Positions 556-61,502 of a DNA stretch of 64,000 nt are shown piece after piece. Positions within the stretch are counted from its first letter, which is position 1. Every line of letters starts with the position of its first letter. Under the pieces are notes generated by a model. The model had not been told where the DNA came from, made no database searches, and worked only from the letters and a program-made list of their open reading frames with translations. Origin of the DNA: an uncultured Acidobacteriota bacterium (GTDB lineage: Bacteria > Acidobacteriota > Thermoanaerobaculia > Gp7-AA8). The stretch covers positions 544,001 to 608,000 of the forward strand of contig CAVUKB010000004.1 in assembly GCA_963741955.1 (NCBI GenBank), written 5' to 3'. Position numbers and translations under genes: made by a program.

Positions 556-1965
556 CTACAGCAGGATGCCGCGAAGGATCGTGGCCGCGACGGTGAAGTA
601 GATCACGATGCCGGTAACGTCCACGAGCGTCGCGACGAATGGCGCCGACGACGCCGCGGGATCGGCGCCGAGGGATTTGAGAACGATCGGAAGCATTGAC
701 CCGGCGATCGAGCCCCACAGGACCACTCCGACGAGTGCGCATCCTATGGTGGCCGCGACGGGAAGCCAGTGTGGACCGTAGAGGTTGAACGCGACGGCCC
801 AGACGGTGACGCGCGCGAATCCGACGATGCCGAGGATCAAACCCAGTCCGAGCCCGGAGATACACTCGCGACCGAGGACGTACCACCAGTCGCGGATGCG
901 AAGCTCGCCGAGTGCGAGTGCGCGGGTGACCAGAGTGGCGGCCTGCGATCCGGTGTTGCCGCCGGCGGAGATGATCATCGGGATGAAGAGGGCGAGCACC
1001 ACGGCGCGCGCGATCTCCTTTTCGAAGTATCCCATCGCGGTCGCGGTGAGCATCTCGCCGACCAGGAGGAAGACCAGCCAGGTCGCGCGCTTCTTGATCA
1101 TGCGGGGGAGTGCGATGGTGAGATACGGCTCATCGAGGGCTTCCGATCCACCGAGTTTCTGGATGTCTTCGGTCGCCTCTTCTTCCACCACGTCGAGGAC
1201 GTCGTCGACGGTGACGATCCCGACCAGAGCTCCTCCGGTATCGGTGACCGGGAGGGCAGTGCGGTCGTGTTTCCGGAAGAGCGCGATCGCAGTCTCCTGG
1301 TCGTCGGTGGCCTGCAGGGCCACGAACTGGTGGTCCATCAGATCATCCACGTGACTGTCGGGAGGAACGAGCAGAAACTCGCGCATCCGGATGTCGTCGA
1401 TCAATGTCCCGTCGTCGTCGACCACGTAGATGACGTTGAGCGTCTCGCTGTCGCGTCCGAAGACGCGCACGTGCGCGAGGACTTCTTCCACCTTCCACTC
1501 TTCACGGACCGCGACGTAGTCCGGCGTCATCAGACGGCCGATACTGTCCTCCGGATACCCGAGCAGACGGCTGGCGACGGTTCGCTCGTCGGGCGAGAGG
1601 AGGTTGAGGAGGCGCTTGGTGACCTTCGCCGGCAACTCCTCGAGGAGCGCGGTACGGTCGTCAGGCGACATGTCGTTGAGGATCGAGGTGATGTCCTTGT
1701 CGCCGAGTCCTTTCAGGAGCTCTTCCTGCGCATCGAACGAGAGGTACTCGAACGTCCTCGCGGCGACTTCCCGCGAGAGGAGGCGGAAGACGATCACCTC
1801 GTCCTCCAGCTCGAGCGCCTGGACCACGTCCGCGATGTTCGGGGGATCCATCCGGAGGAGCTCCTGGCGCAGCTGGACGAAATGACGCTCGTGCACCATT
1901 CCGGAGAGGCGGGCGATCCGCTCTTCCCGCTCCGCTTCCCGCTCTTCGATCTCTTCTTCCGCCAT
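556..1965 (-). CDS. mgtE: Magnesium transporter MgtE
   Basis: MgtE N-domain, tandem CBS domains (YPEDSIGRLMTP; GIVTVDDVLDV) and 5-TM domain with GGNTGSQ and DPAASSAPFVATLVDVTG motifs. Confidence 0.97.
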   Translation of the reverse strand: MAEEEIEEREAEREERIARLSGMVHERHFVQLRQELLRMDPPNIADVVQALELEDEVIVFRLLSREVAARTFEYLSFDAQEELLKGLGDKDITSILNDMSPDDRTALLEELPAKVTKRLLNLLSPDERTVASRLLGYPEDSIGRLMTPDYVAVREEWKVEEVLAHVRVFGRDSETLNVIYVVDDDGTLIDDIRMREFLLVPPDSHVDDLMDHQFVALQATDDQETAIALFRKHDRTALPVTDTGGALVGIVTVDDVLDVVEEEATEDIQKLGGSEALDEPYLTIALPRMIKKRATWLVFLLVGEMLTATAMGYFEKEIARAVVLALFIPMIISAGGNTGSQAATLVTRALALGELRIRDWWYVLGRECISGLGLGLILGIVGFARVTVWAVAFNLYGPHWLPVAATIGCALVGVVLWGSIAGSMLPIVLKSLGADPAASSAPFVATLVDVTGIVIYFTVAATILRGILL

Positions 1966-2040
1966 TTTCCGGATCCGCTCCGTACCGTCCTTAAGCTAAC
2001 ACGAGAGGGGGCGGATCGGGAGGGGAGAAAGAGGCATCTA

Positions 2041-2449
2041 CGATCGAGGATCGAGGATCGAGGATCGAGGATCTGAGAGGATCGAGGATCGAGGATCGGG
2101 GATCGAGAATCGGGGATCGGGGATCGAGGATCGGGGATCGAGGATCGAGGATCGAGGATCTGAGAGGATCGAGGATCGAGAATCGAGGATCGAGGATCGA
2201 GGATCGAGGATCGAGGATCGAGGATCGAGGATCGGGGATCGAGGATCGAGGATCGAGGATCTGAGAGGATCGAGGATCGAGGATCGAGGATCGAGGATCG
2301 GGGATCGAGAATCGGGGATCGGGGATCGAGGATCGAGGATCGAGGATCGGGGATCGAGGATCGAGGATCGAGGATCTGAGAGGATCGAGGATCGAGGATC
2401 GAGGATCGGGGATCGAGAATCGGGGATCGAGGATCGAGGATCGAGGATC
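2041..2449. repeat. Heptamer tandem array (GAGGATC)n with GGGGATC/GAGAATC variants and periodic TGA insertions
   Basis: Directly visible ~410-bp array upstream of mgtE. The ILDPRSS ORFs are its translations. Confidence 0.97.
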
Positions 2450-11269: not shown

Positions 11270-11469
11270 GGAGTCCCTGCGGAGTTCGTGATGAGCAAAT
11301 ACTACTTGAACCAACTCTCTAATTCGGGGAGCTCGCGTCCCGCACCGAGTGCAGGCCTTCGTACTGCAGGAGCAGCGGCGAAGGAAGCCAGATGTGTGCG
11401 GGCAGGGCGCCCACCTGTTTCACGCAGGTTCAATTAGAGGCATCTCACACGGCTCATGCGGGGTACTCC
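11270..11469 (+). ncRNA. ssrS: 6S RNA
   Basis: ~200 nt with terminal pairing GGAGTCCCTGC/GCGGGGTACTCC and 6S hallmarks (GTTCG, CTTGAACC...GGTTCAA, GGGAGC, GCCCACC). Classic zapA-ssrS-rny position. Upstream TTGCGG-16-TACACT promoter. Confidence 0.9.
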
Positions 11470-50999: not shown

Positions 51000-51086
51000 A
51001 TCGTCCGAAAAGGCAAAGCCGCCGCGAGGTGGCGACGCAAAGCCGAGGATCTCCCGCCCGTCCCGGGAGACTGCCGGGCTACCGAA
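51000..51086 (+). ncRNA. c-di-GMP-I (GEMM) riboswitch
   Basis: AAGGCAAA-GCCGCC-GCGA-GGTGGC-GACGCAAAGCC-GAGGATCTC...GAGACTGCCGGGCTACCGA matches the GEMM consensus (GGCAAA, GNRA-capped P2, GACGCAAAGC, GCCGGG.TACCGA). Lies 50 nt upstream of a CDS. Confidence 0.88.
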
Positions 51087-52595: not shown

Positions 52596-54395
52596 ATGGC
52601 AAGACGATTCCCCGAGACGCCGATGAACGAAGCCGACAAACGCAATCTGATCGCCCAATGGGCGTTCGACACACGTCCGGTGCTGCTCCGGTTCCATCTG
52701 TGGCTCGAAGACGTCGAAGTCGAGCGGTCGCCACAGGAGGGGCCGGTCTCCGATTTCACGTTCACACCGCGCGGGATCGCACGCTGCGTCGCGATGACCT
52801 CCGCAGCGACCGCGCTCGGCACTCGCCTGTTCGGCGAGTTCGGCGCCGGAGCGGGGAAAGAGAAGGCGGTCTACAACCAGTTCAAGAAGTCCGCGGATGC
52901 GATCAGTGCCTACGTCATGAGCGAAGGGCTGTGGCATCTGACCCGAACTCTCCCCGAGAACCACGCGATCATGGTCTCGCTCGGCGAAGGGTTGATGCCG
53001 AAGGCTGGCGAGACGCCCGAGATGGGGGCGAATCCTCTGCTCGGATTCGGCCGCGTCTACGCGCGACCCGAAGTCGCACGCGCGGTCGACCGGCGCGTTC
53101 GGCGGCTGCTCAATGAGGACGGACACACGTTCCAACAGTTCTACGACTGGATGCAGGATCGCGGCATCACTCTCTGGGGTGCGGCGGTCGACACACTGGA
53201 GAACACTTCCCGTTTCGCGGAAGGAAAAGAAACCGGGCCGATGTCGGTGCTGCACCTCTTCGACTCGCCGCTCCGGATGGCGCAGCCGTACGAGTCCTAC
53301 ATGGGATGTCTCACCGTGCCGCGGCGGGTCTCCGAAGCGGCGTCCGACGCATCGATCCGGCTCGACTACAGAAGCCCGCGAAGGTTCGTGGTCGAAGCGA
53401 TCGAGAAGGCGTATCCCGGAATCCGGCGGGAGAACATCCACGTCTGGACTCTCCGCGGCAAGAGCCGTTCGCAGCGACTCGGCGAGTTGTGGGAGGAGTG
53501 GGAAGGGCTCGGCGCGCACCTGGTCGAAGACGGATGGAAAACGCCGGCGGGGCTCGAAGTGTTCACCGACTCGGGGACGTATGCCCCGACTTTCCTGGTG
53601 GGGAGCTGGAAAGATGCCGAGGGGCAGCCTCACGTGTTCCTCTGCGACGGCTACGCGGCCAGCGCCGAAGCGATGCAGGCCGCGAGTCTCTCGGAAGTGC
53701 TCGACGTCGACGCGACGATGGCTGTCTTCTCTCCGACCTTCAATCTTCCGTGTGCGGTGGAAGCGAGGCTGATGCAGCTCGATCCCTCTTCGCCGGAATT
53801 CGCGGCACGGGTGGCCGAGCTCGTCGGTGGAATGGATGCCGATCCGGCGAGAGTCGAGACGTACGCCGGTGCGATTCGCGATGCGGAGGAGTCGAACGTT
53901 CCGATGGGAAAGCGGATCCTCTGCGCCGACGACTTCCTCCCGGAAAAGGAGTGGAAGGTCCTCGCGAGCATCGGCTACATGTGCGACGATCCCTACACCG
54001 GAGCCGCCGGTGTCACGGAGGTCGGCGACGGCGTGTACAAGGTCAGAACGCGACTCGCCACCCGTCGTGCATCGTCACTGATCACGCTGACCTTCCGGCT
54101 GATGGAGTCGATGGATCAGGCGAGACAGGTTTTCAGTCCGCTCCTGGTTCGATTTCTCTCCGGAGTGGATCCGGAGCGGCGTCCGGTCAAGATCTCCGAC
54201 TCCGGACGGATCCGCAACGAGCTGCAGACGATGCTCTCGCAGGCTCTCGAGCACGAAGGAGAACGGATCCGCGTTCACTTCGACCGGATCGACGCTCAGG
54301 TGATGCCCCGCGAGAAGCAGGAGACGATCCGGAAGGTCCTCCTCTGGTACAAGGAGAATCATCCGGTATGGTTCGATTGGCTCGACGTGGATTGA
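52596..54395 (+). CDS. Hypothetical protein, probably a highly divergent GlpX/class II FBPase-fold phosphatase
   Basis: Ordered motifs KKSADAISAYVM, SLGEG, NPLL, AAVDTLENT, ESYMG, NIHVWTL and DGYAASAEAMQAAS parallel the GlpX motifs. The protein is much longer than GlpX. Confidence 0.7.
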   Translation: MARRFPETPMNEADKRNLIAQWAFDTRPVLLRFHLWLEDVEVERSPQEGPVSDFTFTPRGIARCVAMTSAATALGTRLFGEFGAGAGKEKAVYNQFKKSADAISAYVMSEGLWHLTRTLPENHAIMVSLGEGLMPKAGETPEMGANPLLGFGRVYARPEVARAVDRRVRRLLNEDGHTFQQFYDWMQDRGITLWGAAVDTLENTSRFAEGKETGPMSVLHLFDSPLRMAQPYESYMGCLTVPRRVSEAASDASIRLDYRSPRRFVVEAIEKAYPGIRRENIHVWTLRGKSRSQRLGELWEEWEGLGAHLVEDGWKTPAGLEVFTDSGTYAPTFLVGSWKDAEGQPHVFLCDGYAASAEAMQAASLSEVLDVDATMAVFSPTFNLPCAVEARLMQLDPSSPEFAARVAELVGGMDADPARVETYAGAIRDAEESNVPMGKRILCADDFLPEKEWKVLASIGYMCDDPYTGAAGVTEVGDGVYKVRTRLATRRASSLITLTFRLMESMDQARQVFSPLLVRFLSGVDPERRPVKISDSGRIRNELQTMLSQALEHEGERIRVHFDRIDAQVMPREKQETIRKVLLWYKENHPVWFDWLDVD

Positions 54396-54641: not shown

Positions 54642-56282
54642 CTAGGTTTCCGAGCGCAACCGCTTCCGCATCTGCCAGAGGAGATGGGACAGATGCGGCC
54701 GGCGCGATTCGCCGGTGGCGACGATGAGGAGCTTGGTGATCTTCAGCTCCAGCGGATCGGTGTAGAGGAGGATCAGCATCTCCCGGATGTAGCTCGTGTT
54801 GAGCGTGACGTAGTTGTCGGTGCCGACGCCGAGCCGCAGCCCTTTCTTCTCCCACCATGAAAAGGGATGGTCCTTTTCGTCTTCCAGCGCGCCGGTGAGT
54901 TTGCGGTTGGAGGAGGGGAGGGCGACGAGGGTGAGGCGCTTGTCGATCATCCGGTTCAGGACGTCGTGCTGGTAGTGTTCGAGCTCGGTGGCGAGGTGGA
55001 ACTTCGCCTTCGTGAAGAGCGTGGTCTCACCGCTCGAGAGCGGCTCCCCGCGGAGGAGCTTTTCCCGGATGTGCTCCCGCGTGTTCCAGTCGATGTCGAA
55101 CAGTTCGTCGTGCTCGGGAGCTTCCGGCTGGATCGCGATCCCGCGGATATTCAGCTCCAGCACTCGCTGCAGAAGACGGTGGAAGTAGTAGTTGGGATTG
55201 ATGCCGAGCGAGAGGCCGTGCTCGATCGCATCGACGTGCCAGATGTTCATGGCGTTGTCGACCGCCTGAATGCCCTGGCGGAGCGTCTTCCACGTCTCGC
55301 CATGGTGGCTTCGGGTGCGGAAGCCGTACGCCTGCAGTTTTCGGATTCCGACCCGCATCTCCTGGAAATGAGCCTTGCGGTAGAAGCCGCGCTCGTTGCC
55401 GACCGTGTCGATCTCGTTCATCACCTCGCGGAGCTCCGGATGGATGCGAAGGATCTCGATGATCTGCCGGACCTGGTCGTCGAAGCTCGCGCGTTTCGAC
55501 GGATACTTTGCCGCGTCGAAGAAACCCGGTTCCTTCCGGAAGCTGGGCGAGAGAATGAAGCGGAATCCGGGCTGCTCCCGCTGGAAATCCCTGAACCCTT
55601 CGTAGAGACCGATCACCACGTCTTCCGGGGTCAGGTCTTCGATTCCAGGAATCTGTTCGCTGGAGATGGTGGTCTCCCGGAAGAGGGTGAATTTCAAACG
55701 GATCGTCCCGACGTTCGCTTCGTGCCAGAGGCGGGACGCCATGTGGCGGGCGGCGGCGCGATGCGCCTCGCGCGAGGTGAGGACCAGCTTCGAAAGATAG
55801 AGTACCTGGAGATAGCGGTCGAAGCGGTCGTCGCGCCCCAGCCGGATGAGCCGATCGACGTCGGCGGCACTCCGGAGCGGGAGACTCCCCGGGCCGTAGA
55901 CTTCGGCGATCTTCGCCTCGTAGACCGCGCGCTGCGGCCCGTCGAGGAGTGTCGCGAGACGGGGATAGATGAACTCCGCGTCCAGCGATCCGGTCAGATG
56001 GGTGTGCTCGTCGCGGAAGGGAATCGGAAACGCGTGGAAGAAATCATGGAGAGCGCGGGAGAAGGGATGCTCGAGGAGCGGTTCGATCGAGACTTCGTCC
56101 ACCCGGAAGCGGTCCAGAAGGGAGTGGAATTCGCGGATGATCGCGGCAACTTCCCCGTCCTGGTCGAGCGCGGGTGTCCGTCCGGCCAGCTCGAGCGTAT
56201 CGCCGAGGGAGAGGCCGTTCGTTTCACTGATCAGTTCGGAGAGGAATCGGGTGAGCCGTTCGGTCGGAGATGGTTCCGGCAT
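54642..56282 (-). CDS. Adenosine/AMP deaminase-like amidohydrolase with extra insertions
   Basis: EHTHLTGS (HxH), SHHGE, AIEHG, PSSN and GTDN motifs of the ADA family. 546 aa. Confidence 0.8.
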   Translation of the reverse strand: MPEPSPTERLTRFLSELISETNGLSLGDTLELAGRTPALDQDGEVAAIIREFHSLLDRFRVDEVSIEPLLEHPFSRALHDFFHAFPIPFRDEHTHLTGSLDAEFIYPRLATLLDGPQRAVYEAKIAEVYGPGSLPLRSAADVDRLIRLGRDDRFDRYLQVLYLSKLVLTSREAHRAAARHMASRLWHEANVGTIRLKFTLFRETTISSEQIPGIEDLTPEDVVIGLYEGFRDFQREQPGFRFILSPSFRKEPGFFDAAKYPSKRASFDDQVRQIIEILRIHPELREVMNEIDTVGNERGFYRKAHFQEMRVGIRKLQAYGFRTRSHHGETWKTLRQGIQAVDNAMNIWHVDAIEHGLSLGINPNYYFHRLLQRVLELNIRGIAIQPEAPEHDELFDIDWNTREHIREKLLRGEPLSSGETTLFTKAKFHLATELEHYQHDVLNRMIDKRLTLVALPSSNRKLTGALEDEKDHPFSWWEKKGLRLGVGTDNYVTLNTSYIREMLILLYTDPLELKITKLLIVATGESRRPHLSHLLWQMRKRLRSET

Positions 56283-56314
56283 ACGGCGGCATTATCCTGC
56301 AAAAAAGCGGGCAG

Positions 56315-56352
56315 AAAAAAAGTGGTCCCGGAGGCCTTTGCCCTTCGGGACC
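56315..56352 (-). terminator. Intrinsic terminator (minus strand)
   Basis: Minus strand GGTCCCGAAGG-GCAAAGG-CCTCCGGGACC followed by ACTTTTTTT. Confidence 0.8.
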
Positions 56353-56475
56353 GTTCTCGGCGCGTTGACATCCGCAAAGGGGCATTCGCGCCGCTTGCCT
56401 CGATTGATCTATCGCCTCATTCGTGGCTCCTGCGACTCCGTTGGCATCCGCGATAGGGCATTCGGTGTCGAGGTA
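56315..56475 (-). ncRNA. Candidate small RNA with two homologous stem-loops
   Basis: Own sigma70-like promoter, two hairpins with 22-nt loops that are 18/22 identical, a terminal intrinsic terminator and no convincing ORF. Confidence 0.6.
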
Positions 56476-56481
56476 GCGATC

Positions 56482-56510
56482 AATCTAGGTTCGCCTTTCG
56501 GATCGCGCAA
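56482..56510 (-). promoter_or_regulatory. Sigma70-type promoter for the candidate sRNA
   Basis: Minus strand TTGCGC-17 nt-TAGATT. Confidence 0.55.
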
Positions 56511-56680
56511 GGGTTTCGGCTGTTACAGAATCGCGGTTTTCCACAGATCTCCGCAGATGCCGTGCACACGCTGCTGAGCAGTCTGCCGGCAAGTCCAGGT
56601 ATCGCAATCATCAGCGCCGTGTCACAGCTGTGGAGATTCCGATGGAGATTCGAACCCGTCCGTTGTTGTACCATTTCGGA

Positions 56681-57763
56681 ATGAACAGCAACCTTCGATC
56701 CGTGATCGTGGGAACGGGATCGTCGATCCCGTCCGTCCGCGTTCCGAACGAGAATTTTCTCAGTCATGAATTCTGGGGAGCAGACCGGAAGAAGATCGAC
56801 AAGACGAACGCGACCATTCTCGAGCAGTTCGAATCGATCACCGGAATCCGCGAGCGTCGCTACGCGGAAGACGACCGGGTCTCGTCGGATCTGGCGAGCG
56901 AGGCCGCGCGGGAAGCGCTCGCTTCGAACGGGTCGAACGGGGAGGACCTCGACGGGATCATCGTCGCGCACAACTTCGGCGACGTCCGCCTCGGGTCGCG
57001 TCGCTCCGATCTGGTTCCCTCGCTCGCGGCGCGGGTCAAGCACAATCTCGGGATCCGCAATCCCGCTGCCGCCGCATTCGATCTGATCTTCGGCTGTCCG
57101 GGATGGTTGCAGGGCATCATCGTCGCCGACTCGATGATCCGCTCCGGCGCTGCGAAACGGATGATGGTCATCGGATCCGAGACTCTCTCCCGGGTCACCG
57201 ACCCGCACGACCGCGACACATTGATTTATGCGGACGGCGCTGGCGCGACCATCCTGGAGGGACGGGAGTCGGAAGACGATGCGGGAGTCCTCGCGTACAC
57301 GGTCCGCTCCGACAGCGCGGAGCAGCTGGAAATGCTGTTCATGGCGCGCTCGTACCATCCGGATCTGGTCGGTGACGAGATCTTCCTGAAGATGGAAGGG
57401 CGGAAGCTCTACAAGTACGCGCTGCAGACGGTGGCCGGGGCGATCCTCGATTGCCTGAAGAAGGCCGGAATCGGGCTGCAGGACGTGAAGAAGGTCCTCA
57501 TTCACCAGGCGAATGCCAAGATGGACGAGGCGATTCTCGGAGCTCTCTATCAAACTGCAGGTCTGACCCCTCCGGACGACGTCATGCCGATGACGATATC
57601 CTGGCTGGGGAACAGCTCCGTTGCTACGATCCCCACCATGCTGGATCTGATCGTCCGCGGCCGTCTCGAGCCCCACACCATCTCGAAGGGGGACATCGTC
57701 GTCTTCGCGTCGGTCGGCGCGGGGATGCACATCAACGCGGCGGTCTACCGCTGGGCCTCGTGA
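56681..57763 (+). CDS. fabH: 3-oxoacyl-ACP synthase III family protein (FabH-like)
   Basis: VIVGTGS, TGIRERR, FGCPGW (Cys), HQAN (His) and LGNSS (Asn). Confidence 0.88.
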   Translation: MNSNLRSVIVGTGSSIPSVRVPNENFLSHEFWGADRKKIDKTNATILEQFESITGIRERRYAEDDRVSSDLASEAAREALASNGSNGEDLDGIIVAHNFGDVRLGSRRSDLVPSLAARVKHNLGIRNPAAAAFDLIFGCPGWLQGIIVADSMIRSGAAKRMMVIGSETLSRVTDPHDRDTLIYADGAGATILEGRESEDDAGVLAYTVRSDSAEQLEMLFMARSYHPDLVGDEIFLKMEGRKLYKYALQTVAGAILDCLKKAGIGLQDVKKVLIHQANAKMDEAILGALYQTAGLTPPDDVMPMTISWLGNSSVATIPTMLDLIVRGRLEPHTISKGDIVVFASVGAGMHINAAVYRWAS

Positions 57764-57802: not shown

Positions 57803-58369
57803 TCATTCCTTTCCGATTGCGGCGAGCGCTCGCCGGGCGAGATCGACGGCCGCGGCGTGACCTGCATCGGGCGCCGGGAAGTTCTTCGGTGTCACGATCA
57901 GGTAGTACTTTCCGCCCTCGAAGACGTGGAGCTTGTCAAACTGCCAGAACGCATCGTTTCCGAGTCCCGGTACGGTGATCATCTTCACGCTCGAATCCGC
58001 GAGCTCTTCCCGGACCGCATCGGCGTGATGCGGGTTCTCGATGGGGCTCTGCTCGACGAAGAGTGTCAGCTCACGGTCGGATGTCGACGACTTGAACAGA
58101 CAGCTGCTCATTCCGGGAGTGACTCTTCCCATCGGCGAGTTGACCAGCTCGCGCGGCTCGCCGGCCGGTTCTCCCAGTACCTCTGCGATGGCGGAGGAGG
58201 GGAGGAGCTTGCAGGCGTCGAGCTGCTTCTCCGGAGGTGCGCTCTCCGCCGTCGCCGTCGCGGAATGGCTCGTCGTCGCCGGAGACGGTTTCCCCGAGCC
58301 GTTGCAGCCGACCAGCGAGAGAAGGGACAAGCCGAGGATCAGGAGCGGGAAACGATTTCGTACGTGCAT
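57803..58369 (-). CDS. Hypothetical lipoprotein (DUF3558-like)
   Basis: Lipobox LVGC, Ser/Thr linker and DACKLL...CLF...VPGLGNDAFW pattern. Confidence 0.75.
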   Translation of the reverse strand: MHVRNRFPLLILGLSLLSLVGCNGSGKPSPATTSHSATATAESAPPEKQLDACKLLPSSAIAEVLGEPAGEPRELVNSPMGRVTPGMSSCLFKSSTSDRELTLFVEQSPIENPHHADAVREELADSSVKMITVPGLGNDAFWQFDKLHVFEGGKYYLIVTPKNFPAPDAGHAAAVDLARRALAAIGKE

Positions 58370-58523
58370 GGACTCTCCATCTGTTGTCGAAGCGGAACCG
58401 TACGGACTCCGGGCGATCGAGTCAAGAGCCTCGACGGACTGCCATTTTGACGGATCCTCCTATCGAACGGGGGGTTGCGTCCGGAGGCCACTCGCGGCAC
58501 TCTTGTCGTGTTCGGTTTTTCTG

Positions 58524-61502
58524 ATGTCGCTCAATTTACGCTTTATCCTCATCCGGTCCTCGGTGGCCGCACTCGTTCTGCTCGTGTCGACCGTGACCTC
58601 GCCTGCAGCCGCGACGGTCGCGGACCGCCCTGCGGAACGTGGATTCCCGATCATGAAGGTCTTTGATCAGCGGGTCCATCGAGGAGGTCCGCAGACGTTC
58701 GACGTCGCGCAGAACCGGCAGGGGATCCTCTACTTCGGAAACCTGGCCGGTCTCCTGAGCTACGACGGCGCCTGGTGGCGGCTGATCAAGCTCCCGCACG
58801 ATGCTTCGGCAGATCAGGTCGAGTCGGACGACTCCGGCCGGATCGCAATCGGCACCGTCGGGGAGCTCGGTTATCTCGAGCCGAATGCCGAAGGCGCGAA
58901 CGTTTTCCGCTCGCTCCTTCCTCTGCTCGCGCCGGCCGACCGCGACTTCGGGGACATGAAGAGTATCCGTTCGACCGGGAACGGATTTCTCTTTCTGACC
59001 GACCGGCTCCTCCTGCATTGGGACGGGCACTCTTCCCTTCGAATCGTCCGGCGATTCGCAGACGACCAGACCACTCCTCACAGGATGTTCATGGTCGGCA
59101 GGACGCCGTGGCTGGTGGGGGATTCGGGGGCCGAGACTCTCGACCTGAAGAATGGAGCGACGAATCCGATCCCGGCTCTGGCAGGGAAGAAGGTCAAGCT
59201 CGTCTTTCCGCAGAGCGGCGGAGGAGTGGTCGTCGCCATCGACGAACAGGGACTCTACTCACTTCGGGACGGCCGGCTGGAGCCTCTTTCATCTTCGCTG
59301 AACGCCTGGTTCTCGGGAAAGGCGATCTCCGGCGGATGCCGTTTGCTCGACGGACGCTACGTGCTCCTCGCCCGTGATCACGGGGTGGTCCTGATACGAG
59401 CGGACGGAACGATCGAGCAGGTGATCGATGAATCGGCAGGTCTGCCGCAATTCGTTCTCTGGAACGCGTTCGCGGATCGCGAAGGAGCGCTGTGGCTCAC
59501 GTTCGACGGTCCGATTGTCCGAATCGATTTTGCCTCGCCGGTGACCATTCTCGACTCGCGGAGAGGGATCAAGGGATCGATCAGCACGGTCAACCGATGG
59601 CGCGACCGGCTCTACATCGGCACCACACGAGGGCTGTTCACCCTTTCGAACGAGAGGAATCAGGAAGAGGCGACGAAGGTCGGCGGTCTTCCTTCGGCCG
59701 CGTGGTGTCTTCTTCCGTTCGATCGCGATCTGGTGATCGGTACGGTCAAGGGCGTCTATATCCTCCGGGACCGGGGCGATCCGCAGCTGGTGCCGGGCAC
59801 CGATCGCTTCGCACTCTATTCGATGGCCCGGTCCACGAGTGATCCTTCTCTGGTGTGGATGGGAACGGACAAGGGACTGTTCGTCCTGCGTCGTCGCCCG
59901 GCCGGTTGGCATTTGGAAGGAGCGGTCGACGGGGTCCGGCCTTACGTCTCCTCGATCGTCGAACGTGACCACGTGCTGTGGCTCGGGACGGTCTACGACG
60001 GACTTCTGCGAGTCGACGATCCACTTTCCGCGAAACCACGGATCACGACTTACGCGAACGGCGAAGAGATCGGAGTCTTCACCATTGGAGGACGTCTCCT
60101 GGTCGTCCGTCCCTCCGGCGAGATCTCCGACATCGATGCGACCAGCCATCTGGTGCCCGATCCGCGGCTCGCCGGGATCTCCCTTCCGGATGACTTCTTC
60201 CTCCTCGCGGAAGACGGAGCGGGGAACATCTGGATCAATTCCACACCGCCGCGCCTGATCCGGAAGCATTCTGACGGGACGTTTTCCAGGGACACCGAGC
60301 CGCTGGTCCAGGTGGATGCGAGCGACATTCAGTTCATGTCCGTCGATTCGGACGGAGTGGTCTGGTTCGGTGGGGACCGCGGCCTTTTCCGCTATCAGCC
60401 CTCGCAGGTTCAGACGCACTTCGCCCAACCCATCCCTCTCGTCCGTCGGGCGGTCACAGGCGACGGGAGGCTGGTCTACGGCGGCGGCGCGACGAGCGCG
60501 CTCGTGCACCTTCCGTTCGCGTTTCGCCGGTTGCGCGTCGAGTTCGCCCCCGCGTCGTACCACCAGGGAATCGAGTACCAGTACCGGCTCGACCCTTCCG
60601 ACACCGATTGGGGCAAGTGGAGCACGGAGCCGTTCGTGGACTTCACGAATCTCTCCGAGGGAACTTACACGCTCCGGATGCGGGCGCGCGACGCCGAGAA
60701 GGTCAGCCCGGAGACGACCTGGTCCTTCGCAGTGGATCCTCCCTGGTACCGACGTCCGTGGGCGATCGCCCTCTGGTTTCTGGTCGTGGTCGGTGCGGTA
60801 GTGATCGTGGTGAGGCTGCGGACGCGCGCACTCTCGCGCGACGCGGAAGAATTGCGCCGGCTGGTCGGCGAACAGACCGAGGAACTGAGCCAGAGGGTCG
60901 AGCAGCTGAGGGAGATCCAGGAGGAACTGGTCGAAAAGAACGCGCAGCTCGAAGAAGCAAACGCGCAACTCGAGCTCCAGTCGCTGGTGGACGAGCTCAC
61001 TGGGGTCAACAACCGCCGGAGCTTCCAGCGCGAGCTGGCCGACGAATGGAACCGCGCCCTTCGAAGAAATGATCCGATCTCGTTGATCCTGATCGACCTC
61101 GATCGGTTCAAGGATCTGAACGACCGGCTGGGACATCAGGCGGGAGACGCCTATCTTCGCGAGCTCGGTGCGCTCCTGATGGCATCCATCCGGAGAGCTG
61201 GCGACGTCGTTGCGCGCTACGGAGGCGAGGAGTTCGTGCTCCTGCTCCCCAGGACCGAAGAAGAACATGCGGTGCGCATCGCCGAAGCACTGCGTTCGAA
61301 GATCGAATCGATGGAGGTTCCCGGTCTCGGAAGGGAATGCCAGGTTACTGCAAGCTGCGGAGTGGCGACAATGAGGCCCGTTCCGGGCGATACGGTCAGC
61401 GAGTTCGTCGGACGGGTCGACCGCGCGCTCTACGCAGCAAAGAGAAGCGGGCGAAATCGCGTCTGCGTCGCCGACGAAGAGGGCGCAAAATCGCTCCTCT
61501 GA
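58524..61502 (+). CDS. Sensor diguanylate cyclase: beta-propeller + Y_Y_Y + TM + coiled coil + GGDEF
   Basis: Signal peptide, propeller blades, EYQYRL...FTNLSEGTY, PPWYR TM, then DELTGVNNRR...RAGD...RYGGEEF. Start approximate. Confidence 0.92.
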   Translation: MSLNLRFILIRSSVAALVLLVSTVTSPAAATVADRPAERGFPIMKVFDQRVHRGGPQTFDVAQNRQGILYFGNLAGLLSYDGAWWRLIKLPHDASADQVESDDSGRIAIGTVGELGYLEPNAEGANVFRSLLPLLAPADRDFGDMKSIRSTGNGFLFLTDRLLLHWDGHSSLRIVRRFADDQTTPHRMFMVGRTPWLVGDSGAETLDLKNGATNPIPALAGKKVKLVFPQSGGGVVVAIDEQGLYSLRDGRLEPLSSSLNAWFSGKAISGGCRLLDGRYVLLARDHGVVLIRADGTIEQVIDESAGLPQFVLWNAFADREGALWLTFDGPIVRIDFASPVTILDSRRGIKGSISTVNRWRDRLYIGTTRGLFTLSNERNQEEATKVGGLPSAAWCLLPFDRDLVIGTVKGVYILRDRGDPQLVPGTDRFALYSMARSTSDPSLVWMGTDKGLFVLRRRPAGWHLEGAVDGVRPYVSSIVERDHVLWLGTVYDGLLRVDDPLSAKPRITTYANGEEIGVFTIGGRLLVVRPSGEISDIDATSHLVPDPRLAGISLPDDFFLLAEDGAGNIWINSTPPRLIRKHSDGTFSRDTEPLVQVDASDIQFMSVDSDGVVWFGGDRGLFRYQPSQVQTHFAQPIPLVRRAVTGDGRLVYGGGATSALVHLPFAFRRLRVEFAPASYHQGIEYQYRLDPSDTDWGKWSTEPFVDFTNLSEGTYTLRMRARDAEKVSPETTWSFAVDPPWYRRPWAIALWFLVVVGAVVIVVRLRTRALSRDAEELRRLVGEQTEELSQRVEQLREIQEELVEKNAQLEEANAQLELQSLVDELTGVNNRRSFQRELADEWNRALRRNDPISLILIDLDRFKDLNDRLGHQAGDAYLRELGALLMASIRRAGDVVARYGGEEFVLLLPRTEEEHAVRIAEALRSKIESMEVPGLGRECQVTASCGVATMRPVPGDTVSEFVGRVDRALYAAKRSGRNRVCVADEEGAKSLL

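Follow-up and report, generated by a model that had tools for sequence, protein, structure and literature searches.

A candidate family of modular small RNAs built from kissing-hairpin pseudoknots in one order of Thermoanaerobaculia

A divergent intergenic space of 347 nt, flanked by a FabH-like gene and a deaminase-like open reading frame (ORF), carries hairpins with strikingly similar 22-nt loops on its minus strand. This raises the question of whether these hairpins belong to an RNA gene in its own right or to a leader of the deaminase-like gene, and what a repeated loop could be for. The space lies in the window, by which we mean the whole stretch of 64,000 nucleotides that was analysed, from an uncultured member of the Thermoanaerobaculia. 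These are abundant, uncultured soil Acidobacteriota, and we know of nothing that has been described on RNA-based regulation in this class.

The RNA locus in the window

On the minus strand we found every element that a sequence-only reading had placed there: a promoter, two hairpins, a terminator with a U-tract, and a GATAAT ahead of the deaminase-like ORF. A third hairpin (56427-56397), which lies between hairpins 1 and 2, was absent from that description. The parts of the locus are listed below, where P1 and P2 are the two hairpins of a module and modules are of an internal (A) or a terminal (B) type.

56630-57763, plus strand: FabH-like gene, one flank of the RNA locus
56515..56581, minus strand: upstream boxes, namely a TGCNC-N8-GTGCA palindrome, CTGYGGA-N4-CTGTGGAAAAC and then TGTAACAGC; presumed transcription-factor sites
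56510-56505, minus strand: -35 element TTGCGC, followed by a 17-nt spacer to the -10 element (whole promoter, 56482..56510)
56487-56482, minus strand: -10 element TAGATT, from sequence reading and the upstream alignment of homologues
~56476-56474, minus strand: putative transcription start, placed by promoter conservation
56433..56470, minus strand: hairpin P1 of module 1 (internal A type); match of covariance model R1 at 56383-56475, 61.4 bits
56470-56463 / 56440-56433, minus strand: stem of hairpin 1 (P1 of module 1), CGACACCG / CGGAGTCG, with an internal A-A mismatch
56462-56441, minus strand: 22-nt loop of hairpin 1, AATGCCCTATCGCGGATGCCAA
56456-56450, minus strand: kissing 7-mer CUAUCGC in the P1 loop of module 1, predicted to pair with 56415-56409
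56397..56427, minus strand: hairpin P2 of module 1, which alone folds at -9.5 kcal/mol (z = -2.5)
56415-56409, minus strand: 7-nt loop GCGAUAG of this P2, the exact complement of the P1-loop 7-mer
56358..56393, minus strand: hairpin P1 of module 2 (terminal B type)
56393-56387 / 56364-56358, minus strand: stem of hairpin 2 (P1 of module 2), CGGCGCG / CGCGCCG
56386-56365, minus strand: 22-nt loop of hairpin 2, AATGCCCCTTTGCGGATGTCAA
56380-56374, minus strand: kissing 7-mer CCUUUGC of module 2, predicted to pair with 56341-56335
56315..56352, minus strand: GC-rich intrinsic terminator, doubling as P2 of module 2, with its stem at 56352-56343 / 56333-56324
56341-56335, minus strand: terminator loop bases GCAAAGG, complementary to the 7-mer of module 2
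56321-56315, minus strand: U-tract
56296-56291, minus strand: GATAAT, 8 nt ahead of the ATG at 56282
54642-56282, minus strand: deaminase-like ORF of 546 aa, the other flank, downstream of the RNA

A transcript from this promoter to this terminator would run from ~56475 to 56315 on the minus strand and measure ~160 nt. When folded, the terminator hairpin (56352-56324) reached -20 kcal/mol with z = -3.0. A simple promoter/terminator scanner reported neither a promoter nor a terminator in 56100-56800, because TTGCGC/TAGATT fell below its threshold and the 10-nt terminator loop exceeded its limit. The minimum free energy fold of the whole region reached z = -1.45 only and paired the -10 region with the 3' strand of P2, a pairing that was dropped since homologues give it no support.

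The two loops are identical at 18 of 22 positions, as had been claimed from the sequence. Even with up to 3 mismatches allowed, the 22-nt loop pattern occurred at exactly two sites in the window (0.15 expected; two sites were reached in 1 of 100 shuffles), and these two were also its only sites in the 5.4-Mb genome to which the window belongs. The stronger case against chance comes from comparative sequence analysis, which shows these elements conserved across many other genomes.

The impression that the RNA belongs to no known family held up in three Rfam searches. At gathering thresholds, Rfam 15 matched only 6S RNA and a c-di-GMP-I riboswitch in the whole window, both away from the locus. 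A scan of 56200-56650 at E <= 10 gave seven weak matches to eukaryotic miRNA or snoRNA models and to part of the Pseudomonas sRNA P17 model, with scores of 10-18 bits that fall well short of gathering, and in a scan of seven homologous loci at E <= 1 none of eight matches overlapped a module. A search of full-text literature, with supplements outside its scope, found no account of such an RNA. We therefore regard the RNA family as previously undescribed and, in kind, as a modular regulatory sRNA.

The remainder of the window holds other features of note. The 6S RNA lies at 11271-11468 on the plus strand (RF00013, 92.5 bits, full length), and the c-di-GMP-I aptamer at 51002-51086 on the same strand (RF01051, 56.7 bits), with several overlapping ORFs after it. 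A large GGDEF protein with Reg_prop/Y_Y_Y domains is encoded at 58041-61502 (plus strand). An ORF of 599 aa at 52596-54395 (plus strand) had no Pfam, NCBIfam or PADLOC match and may not be a real gene, because ORFs overlap there on both strands.

Tandem arrays and the fold of the module

When the segment 56290-56540 (minus strand) was compared by blastn with 60 relatives, matches with E <= 3e-8 were obtained in 22 of the 36 genomes of the same family, the best match in the 24 genomes of other families having E = 0.006. Many of the matches overlapped with a period of ~76-80 nt. The homologous loci are tandem arrays of one unit of ~78 nt, with a terminator and U-tract after the last module; the period lies between 70 and 85 nt among arrays, and the linkers are variable in length (2-5 nt). 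In all loci collected, a loop pattern of the same kind found 88 arrays of at least two modules (69 after removal of identical copies): 28 with two modules, 32 with three, 12 with four, 8 with five, 3 with six, 1 with seven and 4 with eight, these counts being lower bounds because divergent modules escape the loop pattern. The array in the window thus has two modules, and those of relatives two to eight. Several genomes carry more than one RNA locus, and the window's own genome has one. Mean identity between modules was 0.70 within arrays versus 0.63 between arrays; some neighbouring modules were up to 0.96 identical, which points to recent tandem duplication as judged from sequence, and others were only ~60% identical with the fold kept. 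Among the genomes used, five are unpublished, and no claim depends on them: G022 contributed locus L016 and with it 3 of the 78 modules described below, and G042, G076, G116 and G117 entered the blastn and R1 family tallies only.

A subtype with three modules (L010, L021, L065, L073, L091 and L093) has a spacing of ~72-75 nt, and the P2 of its middle module is no terminator. The -35 and -10 elements are present in it but the CTGTGGAA upstream boxes are missing, and its position is conserved between an S1-like and a histidine-phosphatase-like gene, both labels coming from sequence motifs judged by eye. This subtype may represent the ancestral single-copy orthologue.

Some loci carry further inverted sequences. 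Long tandem-heptamer palindromes directly follow the RNA terminator in L006 (~1381-1500, minus strand) and L025 (~1960-2060, plus strand), in which ATTTTGG repeats stand opposite CCAAAAT repeats, and TAGTGAT repeats opposite their complement. Long, perfect-looking hairpins stand beside the arrays in L011 (810-1091) and L012 (1899-1989); they gave sub-threshold matches to plant and animal miRNA precursors and are probably inverted repeats of another kind.

For the analysis of the fold, the 90 candidates returned by a regular expression for the loop were reduced to 78 modules with the 23-nt form and conserved ends (54 internal A modules and 24 terminal B modules). The other 12, two of which lie in the window (14828 and 27477), were discarded as spurious. 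Stem P1 showed compensatory changes at 12 of 12 pairs in the 54 internal modules and the loop bases were kept, which bears out the earlier observation that the stems vary while the loops are conserved.

The same loops had been taken for a displayed single-stranded motif, an idea that the alignments contradict: the P1 loop has at its centre 7 nt that are exactly complementary to the 7-nt loop of P2, the hairpin that follows. Internal modules combine CYAUCGC with GCGAURG and terminal modules CCYUUGY with RCAARGG, the P2 of the latter being the terminator hairpin itself. Three of the four differences between the two loops in the window fall within the 7-mer, and each of them is compensated in the partner loop. 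Counted as alignment cells and not as events, the kissing helix was 97.3% paired in the 54 A modules (3 of 7 pairs changed on both sides), 98.8% in the 24 B modules (5 of 7) and 98.2% in 119 distinct R1 model hits (5 of 7); such covariation counts overstate the number of evolutionary events, because the modules of one RNA and of related genomes are not independent. In each of the three sets the observed values were matched by none of 500 shuffles, and sliding the partners by 1-3 columns lowered the pairing to 27-50%. Since model R1 includes P1 and P2 and leaves out the kissing helix, the 119-module alignment is not biased towards that helix. On these alignments, the reading of the module as an intramolecular kissing-loop pseudoknot of two serial hairpins is well supported. 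We know of no other bacterial RNA made of serial intramolecular kissing-hairpin modules in which the terminator is reused as a module element.

Around the kissing 7-mer, nine loop bases were invariant in all 78 modules (A15, G17, C18, G25, G28, U30, G31, A34 and A35 in alignment numbering), and the closing pair G13-C36 was kept in 77 of them. Positions Y16 and R27 were correlated in the 119 modules (UA 50, CG 34, UG 9, CA 25, other 1); they may form an extra pair, a hint of further tertiary structure. RNAalifold proposed a nested mini-hairpin within the loop, in which positions 16-18 pair with 25-27. As the main fold this mini-hairpin was rejected: it conflicts with the kissing pairs, which covary, and most of it does not vary, two of the three pairs being near-invariant (no variation at one, a single deviating row of 54 at the other). 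In the window, the terminator loop could be closed by four further pairs, and in such a model this closure would compete with the second kissing helix.

Distribution, promoter and neighbouring genes

Covariance model R1 detected the RNA in 109 of 124 genomes of the window's family, its own included (~88%; 35 of 40 genera), and in 74 of the 84 that are at least 90% complete. Homologues with conserved loops and covarying stems, the comparison proposed with the sequence-only reading, thus exist in number. Because 15 of the 124 genomes lacked a match, 10 of them at least 90% complete, the RNA is either not universal in the family or has diverged there beyond the model. The class and phylum figures rest on samples, so that absence means not found in the genomes searched: in the class sample (151 genomes) R1 matched 31 of 35 genomes of the window's own family, the single genome of a sister family in the same order and none of 114 genomes of 15 other families, and in the phylum sample (151 genomes) none of 145 genomes outside the window's family and the sister family. 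A 21-nt loop pattern was searched in 185,579 species, each represented by one genome, and matched at 65 loci, with ~2 chance matches expected as estimated from the information content of the pattern. All 65 were titled as Thermoanaerobaculia, Acidobacteriota or Acidobacteria MAGs, some of them labelled gp7. Viral contigs gave no match. Judged by these sequence searches, the family was found only in one order of Thermoanaerobaculia (Acidobacteriota) among the genomes searched.

The regions upstream of the first module could be aligned across 65 arrays, some rows of which show modules instead of the promoter, the first module having been missed by the pattern. In relatives the order is a TGCAC-N8-GTGCA palindrome, CTGTGGAnnn-nTGTGGAAAAC, TGTAACAGCGAAA and a -35 TTGC; there follow a 17-nt spacer, a -10 of the form (CC)TAnnTT(GA) and, ~7 nt later, the first strand of P1. 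A genome of the sister family (G038, locus L106) shows the same boxes, then one A and one B module. The -35 and -10 elements stand at a fixed distance from the first module in homologues, and we infer from the alignment a conserved promoter of sigma-70 type, accompanied by boxes that resemble regulator sites. The window's own genome contains one further near-match, with one mismatch, to TGTGGAAAAY-N6-12-TGTNACAG (G000:C1:160323-160348, L105); no module lies downstream, and this second box was judged to be a chance occurrence.

Neighbouring genes were compared by clustering (blastp, 1e-8) the stop-to-stop frames of at least 90 aa that lie within 2.5 kb of 69 arrays, to the left and to the right. 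The largest cluster touched 8 of the 69 arrays and, by its sequence and membership, looks like translated neighbouring modules. Real protein clusters touched no more than 6 of the 69 arrays and mirror the genus-level synteny of close relatives. Between paired RNA loci we found Band_7 proteins in one genome and PLD plus cytochrome b in another, and genes downstream of arrays lie on either strand and are unrelated. No conserved neighbour gene, and no protein gene linked to the RNA, was found in the 2.5-kb flanks of the 69 arrays or between paired loci. The deaminase-like and FabH-like flanks of the window matched no flank of the 68 other arrays. Since the flanking genes vary and those of the window are unique to it, the RNA is not a leader of deaminase genes or of any gene class, and the suggested tandem riboswitch for the deaminase-like gene was rejected on these grounds.

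The alternative offered with it, an independent sRNA gene, fits the homologues, in which the -35, the -10 and the terminator occupy the same positions. We consider it very likely that the locus is a structured RNA gene that stands on its own and represents a new family. A REP/BIME-type or mobile repeat was rejected, given the single locus in the window's own genome, the conserved promoter and the lack of matches in viral contigs.

What the modules may do, and comparison with known systems

Our preferred explanation, to which as a whole we give a probability of roughly 0.45, is a stand-alone modular sRNA of ~160 nt that acts in trans as a multivalent binder, with a protein as its most likely partner. 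Each module consists of the P1 stem, the 22-nt loop with its invariant junction and a P2 hairpin whose loop is paired with the centre of the P1 loop; in the last module the terminator hairpin takes the role of P2. Each folded module would offer one binding unit for the same partner, and the RNA could serve as a multivalent decoy or scaffold whose capacity is set by the number of modules and of gene copies. It might work by analogy with CsrB/RsmZ or CrcZ, though with a structured binding unit unlike theirs and with another partner. A multivalent binder is preferred because RNAs that titrate or scaffold, these included, are designed in this way, with a repeated folded unit, a fast-changing unit number and a regulated promoter. 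We propose protein titration as the mechanism only tentatively, at somewhat less than an even chance. The evidence sets no protein partner apart from a small ligand, an ion or another RNA, and metabolite aptamers and small ribozymes just as typically have a highly conserved junction beside a pseudoknot.

Three RNA-binding proteins that come to mind as partners or helpers were sought in the window's own genome, which is 99.1% complete. Neither CsrA (PF02599) nor Hfq (PF17209) nor ProQ (PF04352) gave a match, and the controls were detected (E. coli, B. subtilis and T. maritima for CsrA, and the control genomes for Hfq and ProQ). A sRNA dependent on Hfq or ProQ was set aside accordingly for this genome.

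The RNA could instead be a base-pairing sRNA that uses conserved loop bases or linkers as repeated seeds for mRNAs, possibly after processing into modules. Its own gene, its Rho-independent terminator, the multiple paralogues per genome and the regulated-looking promoter would all suit this, as they do sRNAs of the Qrr or CcsR type. However, the most conserved 7-mer is paired within the molecule, the other invariant bases form short junction segments, the linkers vary and are no longer than 2-5 nt, and neither Hfq nor ProQ was found. The multi-seed idea of the sequence-only reading therefore survives in a weakened form: since the conserved bases belong to a structured junction instead of an open seed, it is disfavoured, and we regard it as unlikely.

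Nine invariant bases around a pseudoknot are also the usual look of small aptamers, and the covariation of Y16 with R27, with its hint of tertiary structure, points the same way. Each pseudoknotted module might then bind a small molecule or ion, and the RNA would sense or buffer this ligand, for example through ligand-dependent stability or folding. Yet there is no expression platform, because the terminator belongs to the last module and is compatible with its fold; no link to a gene class names a ligand, and no Rfam aptamer matched. We know of no natural RNA with up to eight tandem aptamers and consider such a poly-aptamer quite unlikely.

An improbable alternative is that the tandem units are cut to monomers, either by self-cleavage, which would make them a new small ribozyme, or by an endoribonuclease as in type III toxin-antitoxin arrays. 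The conserved core with its pseudoknot is ribozyme-like, and the order of promoter, tandem pseudoknotted repeats, terminator and, in the window, a gene ~33 nt further on resembles ToxI/ToxN. Against this, no downstream gene is conserved, the protein encoded downstream in the window resembles adenosine deaminase weakly and is not like ToxN, and none of the known ribozyme models gave a match. Moreover, the present repeats span 72-85 nt and are 60-96% identical, whereas those of ToxIN-like type III systems are short (~34-45 nt) and near-identical. Taking the two kinds of function together, we see an outside chance that every module is complete in itself as a pseudoknot aptamer that binds a small molecule, or that it is a new small motif capable of self-cleavage; if so, the RNA would be categorically new.

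A cis-regulatory leader, that is a tandem riboswitch or attenuator of the deaminase-like gene, is highly improbable and already largely refuted by the comparison of sequence contexts. It would account for the co-orientation of RNA and ORF and for the RNA end lying 32-33 nt before the ATG, but beyond the unshared flanks and the unrelated downstream genes on either strand, the terminator is integral to the last module and no conserved antiterminator was seen. As to the ORF itself, its adenosine-deaminase likeness is confined to residues ~438-507 (Pfam, 33.5 bits; NCBIfam, 30.8 bits versus a cut-off of 412), its first ~430 residues are without a match, and PADLOC gave a single marginal match (CARF_ADA, E = 0.0099).

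A sponge for CsrA of the CsrB/RsmY type would be in keeping with the repeated hairpins and with the two loops of the window, which both read GCGGAUG and resemble the CsrA SELEX consensus. It is rejected because GGA is not conserved and because the genome lacks CsrA. Loop positions 27-29 read AGA in 39 of the 54 internal modules and GGA in the other 15; among the 24 terminal modules, 12 have C at position 29, with GGC or AGC in about half. With no Rfam CsrB/Rsm match either, this reading is refuted for the window's own genome unless a very divergent CsrA exists.

Whichever partner the multivalent binder has, presence in ~88% of the family, frequent multiple copies, a conserved promoter of regulator type and a changing number of modules are the marks of a global regulatory RNA. 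Finding the partner of the module could reveal a new system of post-transcriptional control, because the window's own genome is without CsrA, Hfq and ProQ. With its compact fold and very clear covariation, the module lends itself to structural work and to inclusion in RNA family databases. Were the aptamer or ribozyme reading true, the RNA would be the first natural array of up to eight units of identical function on one regulated transcript, and would serve to buffer or sense a ligand, or be a multi-unit RNA that processes itself, in a lineage without these three proteins.

Several known systems share single traits with the RNA described here. Type III antitoxin RNAs (ToxI, CptI, TenpI) are likewise tandem direct repeats that each fold into a pseudoknot and are followed by a terminator; unlike them, the present RNA has no adjacent toxin gene or conserved neighbour, its units have double the length and show compensatory changes where they have diverged, and it possesses conserved regulatory boxes of its own. 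A helix of ~7 bp between two hairpin loops also organises the fold in purine and lysine riboswitches and in the loop-loop contacts of ColE1 RNA I/RNA II, whereas here the hairpins are serial neighbours and not arms of one junction, the unit occurs 2-8 times, and the RNA has no known ligand or gene association. CcsR or 'cuckoo' RNAs and the Qrr paralogues resemble it as paralogous sRNA families with repeated hairpins and conserved loop sequences, but their loop motifs are free seeds for mRNAs, and here the centre of the loop is paired within the molecule.

The closest parallel in design is offered by CsrB/CsrC/RsmX/Y/Z, which sequester CsrA, and by CrcZ, which sequesters Hfq/Crc. The differences lie in the unit, here a 78-nt two-hairpin pseudoknot and there a short GGA or A-rich motif, and in the partner, given that GGA is not conserved, that no CsrA or Hfq was found, and that there is no similarity in sequence or model. 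What is shared is a stand-alone sRNA gene running from promoter to terminator, repeated units that vary in number between species, often several paralogues per genome, conserved upstream sites of regulator type and, presumably, the logic of titration by multivalency.
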